Source of the DNA: Euglena gracilis
Lineage: Eukaryota
Assembly: GCA_039621445.1 (NCBI GenBank)
Contig: CP154954.1
Span: forward strand, 1,550,001-1,614,000
Direction of reading: 5' to 3'
DNA: 64,000 nucleotides
Each line of letters begins with the position of its first letter. Position 1 is the first letter of the stretch. Below, one piece after another: positions 4,154-53,110 of the stretch. Made by a program: the position numbers and the translations under genes. The notes under the pieces were generated by a model. That model was not told the DNA's origin. It saw nothing but the letters and a program-made list of their open reading frames with translations, and did no database searches.

Positions 4154-4285
4154 AGATTAAAAAAAAGAAAGGAAAAAACAAAAAAAAAAAAAATAAGGCA
4201 AAAGTAAAGAAAAAGAAAGGAGGGGAGGAAAAAAAAAAAGAAAGAATATAAGACAAAGGAAAAAAAAAAGAAAGAAAAAAAAAAA

Positions 4286-7200
4286 ACGTAGCAAGAGGGC
4301 GTTCTTGTGGTGGAACAGCTCCCCCGGGACCTGTGGGGATAGCGCCAGCCACCCTCCACGGCACACACCCTCACCCACAAAACCCAGGCAGGCACACCCC
4401 GGCCAAGCTTCTGCTTGATGACCCAGGGGGGTCCACTAGCTGGCCATTTTGCTAGCCACATGAAAAAGCCAGACCTCCGCCGGCCCAGAAATGGGGTCTT
4501 TAATGCTGGCTTTCTTCCCAAAAATTGCCAAAAAATGGGCATTTTTGTCAGGTTTTGGGTTCAAATTTCCGGCGCTTTGCCGTCACCGGGAAAAAGTTTT
4601 CCACCGTCTATCCCCCTTCCAAGGGGGGTGCATTAACCACTGGACTAACCCCCCCCCCCAAGAAACTGTCACCTGACAGGTTGGCCAGTGCCGGGGACCC
4701 TGACAACTTCCTGTCATGACAGGTACCGGTGCCGTGCCAGGGACCCTGACAACTTCCGATGCTGACAGGTTGGACAGTAATGGGGACCCTGACGATTTCC
4801 CGGGCGGGATCCTGACAGCTTCTCCAGCATGACCGGGGGGGGGGGGGGTAGGTAGCTAGAACAAAACAGCCAGGACACAGAGGACAACACGACGACTTAA
4901 GAGAAAAAAAGTTTCGTTGCCAATGCAAGTGTGCACCTGGACAAAAGGAGCCAAATGTGCACAGAAAGAAAAGGGCAGCAAATACAGTTTTTGGCGGGTG
5001 CTGCGATGGCATGAAGGGAACCCATTCATACCCGATTGGGGTTTGGAGACCCGGATGAGAAATTCGGACCCGTGTACTTCATCATTAAACGCTTGGGGAG
5101 AGGCTGGCAGGCTGGGGCTGGCAAAGGGCTGACCTCCACTTCGCCATCGCAGTTGAAGAGGACCACCGGGGTGAGGCCGAGGTAGAGGAGGTGCAGGTTG
5201 AGCACCTGCTGGTCCAGCGCGTCCCAGTACGGGCCCCGCATCTGTGGGCCGGCGGAGGTGACGGCGGGGTATGCCCTGTGTGGACTTCATTCTTCCCGGT
5301 AGACGGCACACCAGCACAACAATCAGGCCGCAGCGGACTTTTGAAAGGCGCATGGAATGCACGCCGACCAGGCTGTTTTTTTACCAACCCCGGGGGGAGG
5401 GGGGGTCCGGAGTGCCTATGAGTGCCTGCCCATGCAGGCACTCCCCCCCCCAGGGTGGGGTCAGCACCCGACTAAAAAACAGCCTGATGCCGACCCCCTG
5501 CGGAATGATGCCTTTAGTGCGTCAGCGAGCGCACAAGTTGTGACCGCATGGCCATGGCTGAGAAGGTCTGGTGGGGGGGGGGGGGTCGGACCTCCCCCCA
5601 CCCGGGAGGTGGAGGGTCGACCTCCCAATCACCACAGCATCAGCGCAAAGGAAAATTCCGCAGGCGCCGAAGTCGCCGAAGGAAAATTTTGACCAAAAAT
5701 CGTCGCCTTCCAAAATAGCAAAATAGGACGGGGTGGGGGTCAGACCTCAAGACGGGTTGTCGACCCCCCCCCACCCCACAGGGTTTCGGGGATTCCCGTC
5801 CAGCCCTGCACATGGCAAGGCAGCAAGAGCTGTCCAGCTCTCCTCAGCCCCCAGCCTTGGATGGCGCACCGCTGGGGGCCGCGGCTGTCTCGCGTTGGCC
5901 GTCTCACGTTGACCATTGTGGCCACACCACCCCCACAGAAGTGGTTTTAGGACTCGGGGGGGGAGGGGGGTCCGGACCCACCCAACCACCCTGGGGGGGG
6001 GAGGACTGGGGGAACCACTATGGGGTGTCAATTTTGGTCCAAAATTTTTTTCGGCACAAAGCACGGAAAATAGAGGGAAACCTCTCCTCCAGCGGGAACC
6101 CGCTGACCACCCGGGGAGGGGGGCTCGGCCCGGACCCACACACCCCGCCCCCGTCCCGCTCCGGTCAAAACACAAAAAAAAAACGCTGCACCCCACGCAC
6201 CTTGACCGCATCCACCGTGATTCGGGGGTTGTCGTCGAACAGGTTGTCCGTCAGCGACTTCAACAACACCGACGGCGCCTTGAAGTGGTTGAACGCCCCG
6301 TAGATGAGGTTGACGCCCAGGATGCCCTGGGGAATCCAAATGCCAATGACTTGTGTTATTTGTTGTGAGTTGTATTCAAAGAAACCCCGCTGCTTGTTTT
6401 CTTTTAGAGGGTTTTCAAAGTGAAATTGTCCGTGTGCGCGTTGCAACACATTGTATCAGTCTTCTTTTTAAGGCCCCCGGGGGAGAGGGGTCCCCCACCC
6501 CAGCCCGGCGAGGGACGCCCCCCCCCCCCCGGGAGGGGCCCCCCCAAAAATCAGACCATTTGAGGGCATTTCCCCAAAAAAAATGTCACTTCGCGCCGAA
6601 ACCCATACCCAGGACCCTCTCCCGGGGGGTGGATCCAGCCCCGGACCCACCCATCCACCCCCCCCCCGGGGGTCTTCTGACGGAAAAAGAAGCCTGCATC
6701 ATATACGTTACAACACAGGACACCTCCGTCAACGCCCAGTTACTATTTGACTTGCATCGTTGCCTTACCCTAGACTTCGGAAATTTCCAAATGCATTTTT
6801 GCCCTTCTCAACCGGTCGCTCAAAAATGGAACTTGAGACGTGCAATCAAAAACACACCGGGACACACACAACTTGAAGGAAATATGGAAAAGCATTTCAC
6901 CGACAGAAACAATCATGGACCAGGAAGAGACTGACGGTCTCCATGCAATCTCCACCGGCAGGAAAGCCCTTCCTCTCAACTCCGCTTTTGTGGTGTGAGG
7001 CGAGGGCTTTAAGAGGGGGCTTTCTGAATGGTGGGGGGATTGGTGGGGGTTGGGATGTTTGTGTGAAGAGCGCTGGATGACTGCCTCCGTCTGGAACTGT
7101 GCCAAGGGTCGCACCGGGCACAGAAAAAGAAAGGAAAGTGGCAAATAAAGCCCACAACACTGCCACGTTATTCAAAAAAAACAATCGACTTTTCGGGCTT

Positions 7201-7554
7201 CGGAGATCGAGCCAGCTTTCGACTCATTTTTGTCGAGTGTTCACTAAATATGCACTTTACAAGCAATAAACTTGACACCGTTTGTCTGGAGGAGGAATCA
7301 AAATTTGACTATATAATATATGGGTATATATTATAGAGGAGGGGGTCCACGGCTGTTGTGAGGGGGGGGGACACAGGCTGAGGGTGGGTTCAGGCGAGAG
7401 AGGGCGTACGGAGCCTACCAGGGCGTCCTGCTGGGCGTCAATGGAGGTGTCCAGCATGCGGACATGGAGGACGATGTCGCTGGGCTCGGCGTGGGGGTGG
7501 AGTTGGAGCCGGCAGCCGAGCCACCCGTGGCACTCCCCGCTCTGCGGTGGGCCC
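4286..7554 (-). CDS. Internal fragment of a spliced nuclear gene (exons 7419-7554, 6201-6326, 5134-5241, ~4286-4330) resembling a bacterial family usually labelled nicotinate-nucleotide adenylyltransferase-like
   Basis: All four exons are preceded by pyrimidine-rich CAG, the first three end at GT, and the three joins are phase 0. Product: GPPQSGECHGWLGCRLQLHPHAEPSDIVLHVRMLDTSIDAQQDAL|GILGVNLIYGAFNHFKAPSVLLKSLTDNLFDDNPRITVDAVK|MRGPYWDALDQQVLNLHLLYLGLTPVVLFNCDGEVE|VPGELFHHKNALLLR. Family identity is from memory. Confidence 0.8.
4664..4822. repeat. Degenerate intronic tandem repeat with core GGACCCTGACAACTTCC, about 4 units
   Basis: Core at ~4693, 4741, 4782, 4807; perfect palindrome CCTGTCATGACAGG at 4710-4723. 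Confidence 0.7.
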
Positions 7555-7600
7555 CTGGGGTGGGGTGGGGTTGTTGTGGTGGAGTTCATTGAACGTTTTA

Positions 7601-7601
<1 letters not shown>

Positions 7602-7642
<41 letters not shown>

Positions 7643-7662
7643 ACACACACACACACACACAC
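7602..7662. repeat. (CA)n microsatellite
   Basis: Directly visible. Confidence 0.97.
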
Positions 7663-7719
7663 GCCTGCAGATGGTTCTATCAAAAGTATCCATTGTTGGC
7701 AGTTGTTGTGTTGCGCTGC

Positions 7720-7965
7720 GGTGTGGTGTGGTGTGGTGTGGTGCGCTGTGTTGTGTTGCGGTGTGTTGTGTAGCGGTGTGGTTTGGTATGGTGTGGTGTG
7801 GTGTGGTGTGGTGTGGTGTGGTGTGGTGTGGTGTGGTGTGGTGTGGTGTGGTGTGGTGTGGTGTGGTGTGGTGTGGTGTGGTGTGGTGTGGTGTGGTGTG
7901 GTGTGGTGTGGTGTGGTGTGGTGTGGTGTGGTATGGGTGCGGTGCGGTGTGGTGTGGTGTGGTGT
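7720..7965. repeat. (GTGTG)n pentanucleotide satellite
   Basis: Directly visible; source of the VVWCG and HHTTP ORFs. Confidence 0.97.
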
Positions 7966-8030
7966 GCCAGCCTCCCCCCAAACCTGGGGCCCTCCGCGCC
8001 CCCCCCCCCACCTACCACATGGGTAAAGCT

Positions 8031-8631
8031 CAAAAGTTCATTAACTATTAACGATATCGCTTTCGAATTAAACCAATAATTTTTGCTTCTAAGTTTTTTT
8101 TGTTAAGAGATAAATGTGGTGGTATTAATAGTAATTCTTTAGATTCTATGTTTTTTTGTATGACATTTTCTGATACAGTACTTTTTTTATTTTTTATAAT
8201 ACTTTTTGGTTGGCAAATAAAACTAGGTATATTGATAACTTTGTCATCTACACAAATGTGACCATGATTTATTATTTGTTTTGCAGCCATTCGTTGGGGG
8301 GGGTTAGGGTGCAAAACCCTATTCGATGTACCATATTATCTAATTCCTTTCCAAAAAAGTTATCAAAAATCTTCCGGATGATCCTTTTTTTTTCCTAGAT
8401 TTTTTTTACATAATTTAAAAGTTGTCTTTCTGTTATTCCGTAGTAAATCGCCGTTTTTGTTTGTCTTTTTATCTTATATGTTTAGATTTTGATATTTTTT
8501 TTTCCTTTTAAAGATGTTTGCTGGTTTGCCCGGGGGATTTTTTCTTTTCTTTGGATGTTTTTATTTGTAAGACTAGGAAGTTTTTCAATTCTACGAACAA
8601 TTCCCAATCGTGGTCCTCTATATCTTGACAT
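8031..8631 (-). pseudogene. rps4: Error-ridden, 3'-truncated rps4 copy
   Basis: Aligns to 33253-33839 with many substitutions and indels; probably poor consensus. Confidence 0.8.
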
Positions 8632-47307: not shown

Positions 47308-47578
47308 TTTAATTTATTGTTTTATTAAATTATACGTTTTTAATTTATGTTGATAGATTTTTTATAATAAAAATTTTTTCAATTATTAATAGTTTAAAAT
47401 TATGTTTGTTTTATAGTATATTATTACTTAAACTATAAAATAGTGTAGTTAGTGTATTGAAACTGACAGTTTGATTTAAACGTTTTTGGTTTCGATTCAC
47501 TCATTTATTCTTTAATTTAATTAAATTAAAATTCAAAATTCGACTTTTAGGCAAGAATTTAAGTAAAAAAAAAATGTT

Positions 47579-48296
47579 ATGTTATCCGAATATGATAATC
47601 TAAACTTTGAAAAGAGCGTTGAAGGTAAAGGTTCTTTTCTTAATAAAAACCAAATAGAATCTTATTTGGCCTTACGAAAAAAGAAAGGAAAAATATATAA
47701 TTTAGATTCTGAATTTTGGCGTGCTTTTTGTGAATCTCACAATATTAATATGGAATCTATTTTAAATTTATATATATCGAATAAATCTATTTCTAGTAAG
47801 GATTGTTAAAATACTATCTTATATTGTTGGACGAGATTACCTTAAAGGCAGAACCGCTAACTTTTATGCTTACATTAAAGTGGATAAACGATTAGATACG
47901 CGCTCGACTCGTTTTTTGGATTTGAGATTAAAAAAAGACTGTGAAGAGGTTACAGTTTGTGGAAATTATAGCGCAGCTAAGTCAGAAGAATATTCTATCG
48001 ATTATATAATAAAAATGGTTTTAAGTCAGAGAGCATATGGTATACAAGATTTTACTGATTCGTTAGTAATTAGTCCGTGTTTGTCTGTAAAATTAGATGA
48101 TCATTACCAAATGTTGTCACTTTGGAACCGCATGATAAAACTAGCTGAAAAAGGCAATATTTTTAAGGCTCTATCTCTTTTAAAAAAAGAAAGGCCAGAT
48201 TACTACATCAAAAAATTTGTAGCAATTAAAAAAAATTTAAATGCAATTTTTATGTCTTTTAAAAATGATAAAAAATTAAATAGGGAGGTTTTATGA
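47579..48296 (+). pseudogene. Rep-a: geminivirus-Rep-like HUH domain plus oligomerisation helices, motif II lost; one frameshift at ~47766-47806
   Basis: Joined ORF (~239 aa) aligns by eye to Rep-b: YIVGRDY..NFYAYIKVDKRLDTRSTRFLDL..GNYSAAKSEEYSIDYIIK..RMIKLAEKGNIFKALSLLKKERP. Confidence 0.72.
48283..48288 (+). promoter_or_regulatory. Shine-Dalgarno GGGAGG ahead of Rep-b; ATGA start-stop overlap at 48293-48296
   Basis: TAGGGAGGTTTTATGAAT. Confidence 0.8.
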
Positions 48297-49387
48297 ATTT
48301 ATTAAATACGAACAAAAATAACATTGATAATAATATGAGACGTATTTCATCAAAAAAAGTTTTTTTAACCTATTCTTATTGTTCCGCAGATCTTTCAGAA
48401 ATTTTAAATTTTTTTAAAAATAAATTTGAAGTAAAATATGGACTAGTTGATTATGCGTTGGTAAGATAGTTTCATAAAACCGGATACCCTCATGTACACT
48501 CATATTTCGTTTTTATTAAAAAAATAGACACTAAGGCAGCAAATTTTTTTGATATATATGTTGATTCTAAAACTTATAGTGCATATGTTCAAACAGTTAA
48601 TAACGAGAAAGATTTGTTGGACTATTTAACAAAACAAATATTTAACTTTGTAGATGCTTCAAAAAATTTCATGGCTTCTCCATCAATTTTGAAAAAGTAT
48701 GGTAAATATTTTGAATATTGTCCATTAGAAGAAAGGATGATTGAATTAGCAAAAAAAGGAGAGATAGCGGATGCTATGTTGTTGTTTGAAAAAGAAAAAC
48801 CTTCTGAATTTGTATATAAAGGTGATGCTATTGAAAAACGACTTAGAAACATATATTTAAACAAAAGGTTAGGAGTTAAAGCAAAAATTAATTTTAATTA
48901 CTATGTAAACCCTCGAGATATAAGGTGGATGTTAGACATTTATGAATCTTATCTGAATATGGGTGAAAATAAAGTATTTTTAATTTTAGGCGTTGAGCTT
49001 AGGTATTTAATAGATTTTTTTGAATCTTATTTGCAATTCAAAGGCTTTTATCTTCTAGTAGTTAAGGAAGCTAAGGATTTACTGCGATTTAGAAATACTT
49101 GTCATTACGATGCGATAATTTTTTCAGACTCTAGCATTTTAGAGTATCAAAATGTAGATGAGCTAAAAAATTTATTTAACTCTTTAGAAACAACGTTAAA
49201 AGTTCATAATCGAAAAAATAGTGTTAAAGTACTTTTATCTCCTGCTTTACCAAAAGCTATAATGTCGTCAAAACCTTATAAAGTTTTGGAACAATTTTTT
49301 TTTTTTTTTTTAATTGAAATGGAAGGCATACTACCTTATCAATTAAATGCCGATGATAAATTACTTCCCCCACATTTTCATAATTAA
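48293..49387 (+). CDS. rep: Rep-b: geminivirus-like rolling-circle replication initiator (HUH endonuclease plus degenerate SF3 helicase); one in-frame TAG at 48467-48469
   Basis: RISSKKVFLTYSYC (motif I), VR*FHKTGYPHVHSY (motif II), NFFDI (GRS-like), LLDYLTK (motif III), all in frame with track ORF 48614-49387. Confidence 0.82.
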
Positions 49388-49543
49388 GAAATGTAAAAAT
49401 CAAAGGAATACAGAGAACTTGAAAGTAAAACTAAAGTTTATATTCAAGAATTCTTAAAAAAAGCTAATATGAATGATGAAAATGAAGGAAATGCTAATCA
49501 AAAAAATACTAATTAATACGTTTTTATTATATGTTATTATTTT

Positions 49544-49772
49544 ATTAGTAATAAAAATATTACTAATTTGTTATTTGTTATAAATATGTTATATTTATTC
49601 TAGGGCGGAAAATTAGTGGTAACATTAATTTGTTAAAAAATGCCTCTTGACATCAAAAGTTCGAATTAATTTTGAAAAGCATGAGGCATTTTTTTAACAA
49701 TTATTTTAAGTTTAATAAAACTTAAAATTTTTTTTTAATAAATTTTTTTTTTTCTGTCCGCCCGGAGAATAA
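49544..49772. repeat. Cluster of hairpins and nested inverted repeats (candidate origin or terminator)
   Basis: ATTAGTAATA-AAAA-TATTACTAAT; TTGTTAAAAAATGCCTC...GAGGCATTTTTTTAACAA; TTTTAAGTTT-AATA-AAACTTAAAA; outer TTATTCTAGGGCGGA...TCCGCCCGGAGAATAA. Confidence 0.85.
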
Positions 49773-50122
49773 AAAAATTTAGAAAATTATTGCTCTATTA
49801 TTTTTGGGAGAATAAAATGAACAATTTAAAAATAAAATTTTAAAAAAAAAAATAAAGTTTGTTTATAATTATATACTAGCGGACACGTTTTTGTTATTTT
49901 TTGTTATAAAGTTGTGATTAAATCATTATAAATATTATTACTAGTATAATTATTATCAAATTAATTTTTATTTGTTGGCTAACTTGTTATTAAATTGTTA
50001 TTAAATAGCTAATTTGTTGTATGAGCATTAAGCGTTAAATTAATTGGGTAGGTCAACAATAAACTATTGTTGAAAGAATATAGTTATAGTTAATTGGACA
50101 AATTTTTTATGGGAGAATAATT

Positions 50123-51834
50123 ATGGTTCAAAAATTAAGAAAAAAATACAAATTCAAAATTAACACCACAAGTTCGAGATATTATGGTAGTTATAATATA
50201 ACACGTAATTGGAGAATTTTAATAAGGACAAATTTTCAATCTTTAATAGAAATGGATTATTCTTTTATTAAAAAATGGCATGCAATAATAAACGACGATA
50301 AAATTTCTTTTATTATGTATACCATATGCAAATACGTGGATTTTCAGAAAGAAAACGATATTTTTAGTAAAGCTTACTTTGAACTTAAGAAAATTTGTCG
50401 GCCACAGTATTTAGAAGACTTTTTTATTTTTGATAAAAATACAATTATAAGTATCGAAAAAGCTAAAGGGGATAGTCCTGGCAATGTTGGTGGTTTTATT
50501 ATTAATTGCCGAGACCCCGAAGAGGAACTTTTTTGGAATAGAATACCGCGCTATGAATCTAAAAATAATAACTGTTTAAGTTTTAAATTTATTACTCAAT
50601 ATAATTTAATTGAAAAAACAAGGGGAAATTATTTTCTACCTAAAATTTTCCTTGAAGTTTTAAAAAAAGGTCCGGAAGAGATTGATAAAGAAAAAAGAAA
50701 AACTGTTTTAGCAAAAAAAATCGATAATGACGAAGAAATAGAAAAAATAGAAATAAAAAAAAAAAAACAATTTGAAATTAATATCTTTTTCGAGGATTCA
50801 GAATTTTTAGCAATAACCGAAAAATATACAAAAAAGTGTGAGGATTTAATAAATATTAACAATAAAGGGAAAAAAATAAGAGATTTATTTTGCAATTATA
50901 TTTTAGAATTATTAATTCTAGAAATAAATATTTTAAATTCTCAAAGTAAACCAAAATATTCGGATGTTTTTATTTGTACTTATAAAAAAAAAAGAACAAT
51001 AATGAAATAGAGTGGTATTTTAATTGGATGTCTATTGATAGAATCCTTAAACAATTTTTATATAAATCAATTAAACCGTGGCAAAATAAAAATATTGACG
51101 ATATTAATCAAGGAGAAATTTATAATATAATTACTAATAAATCACTTACAGATAATACAATAAATTCTGTTAAACGTTCTTTTCAAAATAGATTGAATGA
51201 AAATGTTAACTTAACGAACGTAAGAAAATCATACAAAAAAATAAAATTTGTTTCGTTTAGTTTAACTAAGTTTTATAGCAATGAAAATAACGTTTTTTTT
51301 GTAAATTAAAAATTGAGATTTTCGTATGTGATAGTTTTAATACTAGCCTTATAAGAGATTTTCTTAATTTAATTACAAGTGAAGATATTCTATGGATAAT
51401 GTATTCGGTAGAACCTGTAATATTAATACATACTGATTCCAAAGATAAAATTCTTCAAGAGACATATCTAAAATTAGAATGTAAAGCAGTAAAATCACAG
51501 CTATATTTAAATATATATGTGATATTTGATGAAAAAAGAGTATGGACTAAAAATTTAGTTGAAAGCTTTTTTTCTACTATTAAAAATGGTAAAATTTTAA
51601 ATATATCAAACGTACCAAAACTAGGAGGTCTTTGTTTTTGTTATGTTCTTAATAACCTTTTGCTAAAAGCAAATAAAAAAAAATCAATTAGCTGAAATTA
51701 AAATATATCAGCATACAAAATATGAAATTCCTTCCAAATATAAAATCAAATTTATCAACGAATCGCCATTATTTTTAAGAGAATATACTGGGTCTTTGAA
51801 CTTCTTATATATATTTTACTTAGTATGTTACTAG
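50123..51834 (+). pseudogene. Rep-c: one ~570-codon ORF broken by three homopolymer frameshifts; degenerate circo/nanovirus-Rep-like protein
   Basis: Track ORFs 50123-51010, 51028-51309 and 51399-51695 join across A10 (50984), T8 (51293) and A9 (51675); remnants RNWRILI, AYFELKK, IEKAKG, KPWQ, VIFDEKR, IKNGKI, YVLNN; upstream GGGAG. Confidence 0.55.
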
Positions 51835-51882: not shown

Positions 51883-52070
51883 TTTTTAAAGTCCACCAAG
51901 AATAAAATTCTAGTGGACACGTTTGTTATTAAATTGTTATTATTAGTATAATTATTATAAAATTATTTATTAAAATATAAATAATTTAGTTAGCTAGTTG
52001 TTATTAAAATGTTATTAACTTTTTTAAAGTTCACCGAGAATAAAATCCTAGTGGACACGTTTTTGTTATT
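51883..52070 (+). repeat. ~138-bp unit plus partial tandem copy, related to 49876-50005
   Basis: CTAG(T/C)GGACACGTTT(TT)GTTATT at 49876, 51910 and 52048. Confidence 0.85.
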
Positions 52071-52332
52071 TTTATTGGTTTTAGTTTAAGGTCAGCAGGA
52101 ACAACTTTTATAACCTTTTATTATGGTATCGTACTTTAATAAATCTAAATTTAAGGAATTCTGCAACATATTCTAAAGATAAAGGGCATTTTGGAGATGT
52201 AAGAAATACTTTCCTAGCTGACAGTCGGTATTTAGCGTTTTTACCAACGTTTTTTTCAAATTTATTAAAGGAACTTTTCTTTGATTTTACTTTTTTCTAA
52301 CGTAATTTTTTGATTAGTTTTATTTGGAGTTA

Positions 52333-52380: not shown

Positions 52381-53110
52381 TTATATTATTATTATTATTA
52401 GGGGGCAATTTACTTAGCAAATTCTCGGTCGTTACTGACAAAACGGGGTATGGTTTTGTAAACATTAACCACGCAATAACACAATCACAATATTGCACTA
52501 ATAACTTAAAAAAGTCACTCACATGATATTATTACTAAATAAATGTAATCTGCCTCAGGCAAACGGTTTTGAACTATGTGTATGAAAAGTAATGAGAATT
52601 CTTTACAATTAAAGGGATGTAACATGTAAATCGTTAAATACGACTGCATACAACTCCTATTTAAGATACTATGTACGGGAAATAAGCAAAAAATAATACA
52701 TTATTCAAGGAAAACTACTATGGTACGTAAAAAAGATATATTAAATGAAAGGTTAAAAATTACACAATAGAAACAGACGTGTCCCGTAAGGTGAGGCAAA
52801 AAGTTGCGTTCCGTTTAGCGGCTAAAAACATATTTTTGATGTATAATAAAGTTTCATCTTCATTTACTGTGGAGGATATTAGTTATTCTTTACTTGAGAA
52901 GCTGAAGCCATATGGTGTATTATCGTAGATACGTATATTGACTGTGAAACTAACGTAACTGACTTATCTAGAGTAAACGTGAGTATTATATTTTTAGACC
53001 TCAAATAGACAAAAATTAGTAGCAAAACTTATTAATAATAATAATGTAAATTATCTATAAATAACTGTAAAGTGATTTTTCGAATATAATTTTTATTTTA
53101 TTATTAAAAT

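Follow-up and report, generated by a model that had tools for sequence, protein, structure and literature searches.

The spacer between atpE and rbcL in the chloroplast DNA of Euglena gracilis is best explained as a graveyard of Rep-only rolling-circle replicons, in which organelle circles integrated repeatedly and one Rep gene, here called Rep 2, long acted as a nickase before a stop codon split it; we put the probability of this reading at about two in three. Four Rep remnants lie there within 5.7 kb, three of them found beyond Rep 2 with a family HMM that we built from 23 relatives and used to scan the spacer for further Rep pieces. An initial annotation, made from the letters of the sequence, had proposed that a plasmid- or ssDNA-virus-derived Rep sits in a euglenid plastome under an entry listed merely as unknown, and this is borne out: the UniProt protein ORF281 (EugrCp051, Euglena gracilis, 'Uncharacterized 33.1 kDa protein in rbcL-atpE intergenic region') is part of the 3′ piece of Rep 2. 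The other three remnants go beyond that annotation, as does an origin-like nonamer that the spacer also contains.

ORFs of a well-studied algal plastome that have long been entered without a known function thus gain an identity, and the organelle niche of CRESS-type replicons, shown for mitochondria, is extended to a secondary green plastid. Foreign DNA is said to be rare in such plastids (PMC4814812). Rep relics in organelle genomes were already known, published for mitochondria; what is new is the plastid, together with an undescribed clade of Rep-only minicircles that our searches indicate, some of them apparently with a mitochondrial code. The evidence suggests that tiny capsid-less circular elements, related to ssDNA viruses, once lived in or invaded the E. 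gracilis chloroplast, and it opens the question of plastid ssDNA replicons to a direct test; should free circles be present in plastids, they would give work on Euglena chloroplasts a natural small replicon.

Rep 2 is a full Rep with a dead helicase

Rep 2 begins at 48293 on the forward strand of the window, the 64,000-nucleotide stretch analysed here, directly 3′ of a putative Shine-Dalgarno-like GGGAGG (48283..48288, +). Translation of 48293-49387 meets one internal stop, a TAG at 48467-48469 (codon 59), which separates a 5′ piece of 58 codons (48293..48469, +), carrying motif I (FLTY) and ending at the TAG inside motif II, from a 3′ piece (48470..49516, +) with the rest of motif II (HxH), a GRS-like FFD, motif III (YLTK), a linker and a degenerate SF3 helicase. 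The translation first quoted, with its single TAG and the upstream GGGAGG, was reproduced in full. For the Pfam, PDB and protein searches below, 48293-49384 was read with X at the TAG, and the call of Rep 2 as a Rep requires reading through the stop.

Read in this way, residues 17-115 match the Pfam family Gemini_AL1 (E 9.9e-8; 32.4 bits, with the family cut-off at 24), in agreement with the original call of an HUH Rep with motifs I-III, and PDB Rep chains match at E 2e-6 to 5e-4. A structure model built from 23 aligned sequences (mean pLDDT 82) agrees as well with the nuclease domain of TYLCV Rep (7vg8), which Foldseek aligned at an rmsd of 2.0 Å and a TM score of 0.86 over the TYLCV domain; the Foldseek matches also include WDV Rep, SF3 and other AAA+ helicases. 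Among 1.84 billion representatives, 348 proteins match Rep 2 at E<=0.001, and the top full-length relatives (E 1e-40, residues 16-337, 30-34% identity) bear Gemini_AL1 and weak P-loop matches. Motifs I, II (HUH) and III (YxxK) place Rep 2 in the HUH+SF3 Rep superfamily, in its CRESS-type, geminivirus-like branch, and the end-to-end alignment with relatives, together with the SF3 and AAA+ fold matches, establishes homology of its C-terminal part to SF3 helicases.

The two domains have fared differently. Seven nuclease columns that are invariant in all 18 relatives were checked; six are kept in Rep 2 (T26, H61, H67, H69, Y111 and K114), and the seventh is the TAG itself. In the helicase, the G-K-T/S of Walker A (18/18 relatives) reads Y-L-I, the first Asp of Walker B (18/18) is Ser, turning DD into SD, the Asn of motif C (17/18) is likewise Ser, and the arginine finger is missing, as judged by eye; on these residues Rep 2 does not qualify as a functional Rep. 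The loss is old rather than an assembly error, because it is shared by the database proteins and by a 73%-identical metagenome fragment (P0010). Rep 2 is thus shown to be a full Rep, an HUH nuclease joined to an SF3 helicase that has died, and the earlier description of it as a nickase is right for the nuclease residues but too narrow for the protein, and too generous for the present day, when the apparently genuine stop leaves no working nickase to be expected.

The proposed extent of 48293-49387 needs a similar correction, in that its start stands but its end is private to the window copy. The private differences there include a T-run and extra stops at 49385 and 49394, stops that are absent from the database proteins of E. 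gracilis and its var. bacillaris; these proteins extend 43 residues further (to about 49516), so the real gene ends near 49516. The bacillaris protein, a hypothetical protein of 333 aa, corresponds to Rep 2 from codon 75 and differs from the window copy at 15 of 333 positions, one of them merely the start codon, and ORF281 corresponds to Rep 2 from codon 127. A word-based search with Rep 2 returned ORF281 as its sole match among 2522 candidates.

Three further Rep remnants

Immediately upstream, Rep remnant 1 (Rep 1; 47766..48296, +) consists of a degenerate nuclease domain and linker, with HUH lost, YxxK kept, and motif I and the helicase missing. It scores 107 bits (E 2e-34) against the family HMM and is 26% identical to Rep 2 over 149 aa, and its TGA overlaps the ATG of Rep 2 (ATGA). 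Rep 1 equals a 176-aa database protein that has no Pfam match and no match in a scan against viral sequences. Neither this protein nor the 333-aa bacillaris protein matches a Rep family in Pfam, which explains why both have long stood unannotated.

The other two are short. Remnant 3 (52132..52281, −) comprises an N-terminal basic stretch and motif I only, at 25-29 bits to the family HMM, and remnant 4 (52779..52925, +), about 190 nt before rbcL, is a degenerate motif I region at 13.5-18.9 bits. In a shuffle control for these two, none of 200 shuffles reached 13.5 bits (best 4.9); neither has a Pfam match. The remnants in the spacer are mutually divergent.

Plastid locus and chimeric scaffold

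The Rep locus is flanked by petB, atpB and atpE to the left and rbcL to the right, and the database names EugrCp051 and 'rbcL-atpE intergenic region' assign the Rep ORF to the true plastome. The window around it is not clean plastome but a chimeric scaffold, in which rpoC2/psbB blocks recur and nuclear-like DNA rich in GC is also present. Within 1-42039, an rpoC2-tRNA-rps4-psbB-petB block occurs in about three copies, 96-99.9% identical and one of them inverted; the nuclear-like DNA contains microsatellites and is found at about 4163-8031 and 58-62 kb. The copies differ by many G/C-to-T/A changes and by indels, with a bias towards T/A, and the repeated blocks reflect either nuclear insertion of plastid DNA or misassembly.

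Such a setting raises the question of whether a nuclear insertion or a chimeric assembly made the stop or imported the Rep pieces. The chimeric structure, the changes between plastid blocks and the private stops in the window copy all speak for an artefact, yet we consider one highly improbable: the 3′ part of Rep 2 and Rep 1 exist as database proteins, the former named as plastid-encoded, the 58-aa 5′ piece occurs on eight contigs of independent assemblies, and 19 of 24 listed runs contain at least half of the sampled words from 47400-51800. No RNA run holding them is among those 24.

The stop at codon 59

Three indirect lines from the databases suggest that E. gracilis truly carries the TAG and that it is no mistake in the copy analysed. 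Residues 1-58 recur unchanged as a 58-aa protein called on eight Logan contigs (longest 9159 bp), the same number as for the upstream ORF; the start of the bacillaris protein, at codon 75, is the earliest possible one beyond the TAG; and ORF281 starts at codon 127, the first ATG after it, despite ATGs at codons 1 and 15. Reassignment of TAG was considered and is ruled out, since TAG ends the atpE 3′ ORF and ORF295 in the window and is therefore an ordinary stop here. With its frame interrupted at codon 59 by a stop that is apparently genuine, Rep 2 is not expected to yield a working nickase, and most likely makes no active Rep today.

P0020, a 91-aa Logan fragment, is 54-56% identical to Rep 2 and has a sense codon at the stop column; it has lost one conserved His and ends early. 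In a quick tree of 82 rows it joins Rep 2 at 100, with a stem of 1.1, which suggests an orthologue of Rep 2 in another organism, presumably a euglenid. P0006 and P0010, fragments on one 1.4-kb contig, are also broken.

Rep 2 could nevertheless have been domesticated and be active, if its UAG were read through or edited at a low level or if the gene were intact in a sister species, as a site-specific nickase or a DNA-binding protein for plastome replication or recombination at the adjacent nonamer. The ribosome-binding site, the ATGA coupling, the kept nuclease residues and a third-position GC of 0.19, which resembles the 0.16-0.17 of native genes, would suit such a role, as would the grouping of P0020 with Rep 2 and its sense codon at the stop column; excerpts of one report also describe an in-frame UAG in psbC of another euglenid, Lepocinclis tripteris, for which read-through was proposed (PMC6207741). 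The same codon nonetheless terminates two other frames of the window and here takes the place of an invariant residue, P0020 is itself damaged, P0006 and P0010 are broken too, and the three neighbouring copies are plainly decayed, so that we regard an active Rep 2 as rather improbable.

Relatives form a capsid-less clade

All 15 full-length relatives that were looked up sit on contigs of 1.1-2.9 kb, weak evidence of small replicons because most contigs in these collections are short anyway. Terminal repeats were found in 4 of 10 clade loci, and none of the eight tested carries a second ORF of at least 100 codons. Every relative is a metagenome contig, and no free circle could be tied to a euglenid or a plastid. 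One pattern scan of 185,579 prokaryote genomes gave no relative, the profile searches gave no named algal, oomycete or plastid relative and no named red algal Rep, and the metagenome scan of 28 loci gave no euglenid plastid contig.

In the main tree, for which 39 rows were chosen from 82 for speed and analysed under LG+G4 alone, and which is composed without the Reps of Pyropia/Porphyra (red algae), oomycetes and HthCRESSV1, a capsid-less clade of 24 rows (99/95) includes Rep 1, Rep 2, the circle L001, P0014/L048 and L061. Capsid-bearing viruses fall outside it as its next relatives, with five of the eight second ORFs tested matching capsid families. The subclade with both Euglena Reps is not firm (83/96), and the Euglena branches are long (1.2-1.4). 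For the same 39 rows under LG+G4, AU tests reject a clade of Rep 2 with geminiviruses (p 3.5e-7) and with phytoplasma plasmids (p 0.009); 'geminivirus-type', the term first applied to the gene, is hence apt for the domain family but not for descent. A clade of Rep 1 and Rep 2 is not rejected (p 0.45), so for those two, duplication after one insertion is possible.

Several members of the wider set point to life in organelles. In-frame TGA occurs in the Reps of L048, L053 and L063, at hydrophobic columns in five of six cases, fitting a mitochondrial-type code; the quick tree places L063 outside the clade. L048 carries a Rep alone (208-1272) on a 1.4-kb circle and is probably a mitochondrial minicircle. 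Two overlapping contigs, L060 and L061, hold helicase-less tandem Rep nucleases beside nad4L, atp8, cox2 and cob, and the recurrence there of a nuclease kept and a helicase lost hints at repeated taming of Rep inside organelles. The ORFs of this mitochondrial contig, which uses the standard code (L061 181-2453, L060 173-1162), are tandem frames of 329 codons with two Rep nuclease domains each and no helicase, and they group with the free Rep of L051 at 100/99.

The remnants might instead be endogenous pieces of ordinary capsid-bearing nuclear CRESS viruses (CRESSV6-like), captured by plastid DNA by chance and with no organellar stage, given that such viruses stand next outside the clade with their matches to capsid families, that contigs with no terminal repeat could be incomplete virus genomes, and that Rep-only circles could be satellites. 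We find this origin quite improbable: no capsid remnant is present among the spacer ORFs scanned with Pfam, Rep is the sole gene of the complete circles L001 and L048, the clade includes cases of in-frame TGA, of low GC and of insertion into a mitochondrial genome, and the presence of four remnants at a single plastid site points to sustained exposure.

Other architectures were seen among the loci. L069 and L070 are AT-rich circles of 4.27 kb on which a Rep and three further ORFs share a single strand; those three match no Pfam family, no capsid match was obtained, and both circles lie outside the main clade. The circles L052, L054 (=L077) and L055 carry two related tandem Rep genes (380 and 399 codons), L055 being a dimer of the 380-codon unit, and P0065 is a protein of 967 aa with seven Gemini_AL1 domains in a row.

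A candidate origin beside Rep 2

The nonamer TAATGTTAC lies at 49619..49627, about 100 nt beyond the end of the Rep 2 frame and on the other strand; it has a stem of its own of just 6 bp of A/T and is the sole copy within 64 kb. The same nonamer and strand recur in the relatives L001 and L052/L054/L055, that is, in 4 of 10 clade loci and about two independent lineages. Circle L001 has it, again on that strand, at the tip of a perfect 10-bp stem (z -8.7) that follows the Rep stop by about 180 nt. The probability that the Euglena stretch holds it by chance is 0.006 when motif and strand are both fixed, and 0.074 when any of three nonamers may lie on either strand. As far as sequence can tell, the copy next to Rep 2 is probably, if not certainly, a remnant of a rolling-circle origin. 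A long hairpin adjoins it at 49630..49700 (-15.5 kcal/mol, z -3.7 for a stretch chosen by eye). The L001 circle has a compact origin region with three hairpins at 1520-1660.

Proposed origin and decay of the remnants

A Rep of this kind nicks the nonamer of the origin through the tyrosine of motif III, with a metal held by HUH, while the helicase unwinds; a host polymerase copies the circle, and Rep rejoins the ends. The parent of the Euglena remnants would have been a small circle whose Rep nicked the nonamer, unwound the DNA with its own helicase and rejoined the ends. The absence of a capsid, the way some members use their codons, the insertion in a mitochondrial genome and the clustering of four remnants at one plastid site lead us to infer that such circles replicated inside organelles. 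They would have entered plastid DNA more than once, through nicking and joining by Rep or through recombination, and then decayed.

Rep 2 would have stayed open, and was probably translated, long after its helicase had died. Under a simple neutral model, the shortest branch measured (0.34, a length taken from 89 columns against P0020, a fragment from an unnamed source) should carry about 15-17 stops, and one is seen (P<1e-5); taken with a third-position GC that has come down to the native level, this argues that Rep 2 was kept open long after ATPase loss. In that phase it most likely acted as an origin-binding nickase that used a helicase of the host or a helper, while it resided on a dependent circle or was already part of the plastome, until the stop at codon 59 finally split it. 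A bolder version, which we hold to be unlikely, is that euglenid chloroplasts host free capsid-less ssDNA minicircles, as a plastid equivalent of the mitochondrial HthCRESSV1, and that one Rep was adopted as a helicase-less nickase with an adjacent origin, intact in sister species or working by UAG read-through.

Comparison with known replicons

The graveyard reading has its nearest parallel in oomycetes, where excerpts of one study describe the CRESS replicon HthCRESSV1 and Rep-like insertions in mitochondrial genomes under the proposed name 'Mitodnaviridae' (PMC13499601), and of another an earlier Rep-like ORF in the mitochondrion of Phytophthora sojae (PMC3198968). A Gemini_AL1-class Rep, the lack of a jelly-roll capsid, an organelle niche and repeated endogenisation are common to both, by description, as HthCRESSV1 is outside the sampling of our trees. 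The Euglena remnants, however, are in a plastid and not a mitochondrion; HthCRESSV1 has a membrane-protein ORF2 (five-helix), whereas the closest free relatives of the Euglena Reps carry Rep alone; and its nonamer is TGGCAGTGT, compared with TAATGTTAC at the Euglena spacer.

Red algal plasmids are larger, multi-ORF elements. Those of Pyropia and Porphyra pulchra resemble the Euglena case as algal capsid-less replicons with a geminivirus-like Rep, a kinship by description, as they are not in our tree; the sources excerpted nest their Reps in CRESSV6 (PMC6668415, PMC4814812). Relatives of Rep 2 keep the arginine finger (RR, by eye), as P. pulchra Reps do, unlike geminiviruses (PMC6668415). The same excerpts report that red algal plasmid ORFs integrate into plastomes (PMC6668415, PMC4814812); the ORFs integrated are polB-like, whereas the replicase homologues listed there come from plasmids, oomycete mtDNA and nuclear genomes.

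Geminivirus (AL1/C1) and phytoplasma pCRESS9 Reps share with Rep 2 the nuclease fold, the Pfam family and the motif order, but form no clade with it, and are only about 25% identical (23-26% between a close Rep 2 relative and five phytoplasma plasmids); the Euglena locus has no capsid or movement genes. Geminiviridae are marked by a capsid gene and a TAATATTAC stem-loop; the spacer ORFs scanned gave no capsid match, and the nonamer beside Rep 2 is TAATGTTAC. Grouping with pPAPh2-like Reps, which marks pCRESS9, is rejected by the AU test given above for phytoplasma plasmids. The papers compared, the above together with PMC5572947 and PMC5888179, also describe plasmid or phage genes of other kinds in algal plastomes. 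We found no Rep described from Euglena or another plastid genome in the open-access literature, and the term 'Euglena' is absent from the excerpts of the four Rep papers compared.

Other elements of the spacer

Between Rep 2 and remnant 3, the window holds three ORFs of 295, 93 and 98 codons with no known family (50123-51695). The longest, ORF295 (50123..51010, +), is preceded by a GGGAG that resembles a ribosome-binding site; it has no credible family in Pfam, PHROGs or the ESM Atlas and no match to the relative loci fetched, and is possibly cargo of the element. The ORFs of 76, 93 and 98 codons likewise gave no credible family and no match to the fetched loci. We considered the 76-codon ORF as the missing 5′ part of Rep 1, for which it has the right position, yet it gave no score against the family HMM. 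A 92-nt direct repeat that flanks Rep 1 and Rep 2 (47323/49507) was considered as a scar of integration and discarded, because its score of 54 is attained in 7 of 300 shuffles and nearly equalled, at 53, by other AT-rich stretches. Promoter-like sites in the sequence are near chance (51, against a mean of 43.7, sd 5.3), and terminators are at chance level.

A non-coding repeat with the core CTAG(C/T)GGACACGTTT occupies 49867..50004 (+) and has more copies near 51910 and 52048; none of 300 shuffles matches the alignment scores, and it may be iteron-like or duplicated intergenic DNA. A copy of TAATATTAC, with no stem, ends at 51425 on the minus strand, inside the 98-codon ORF.
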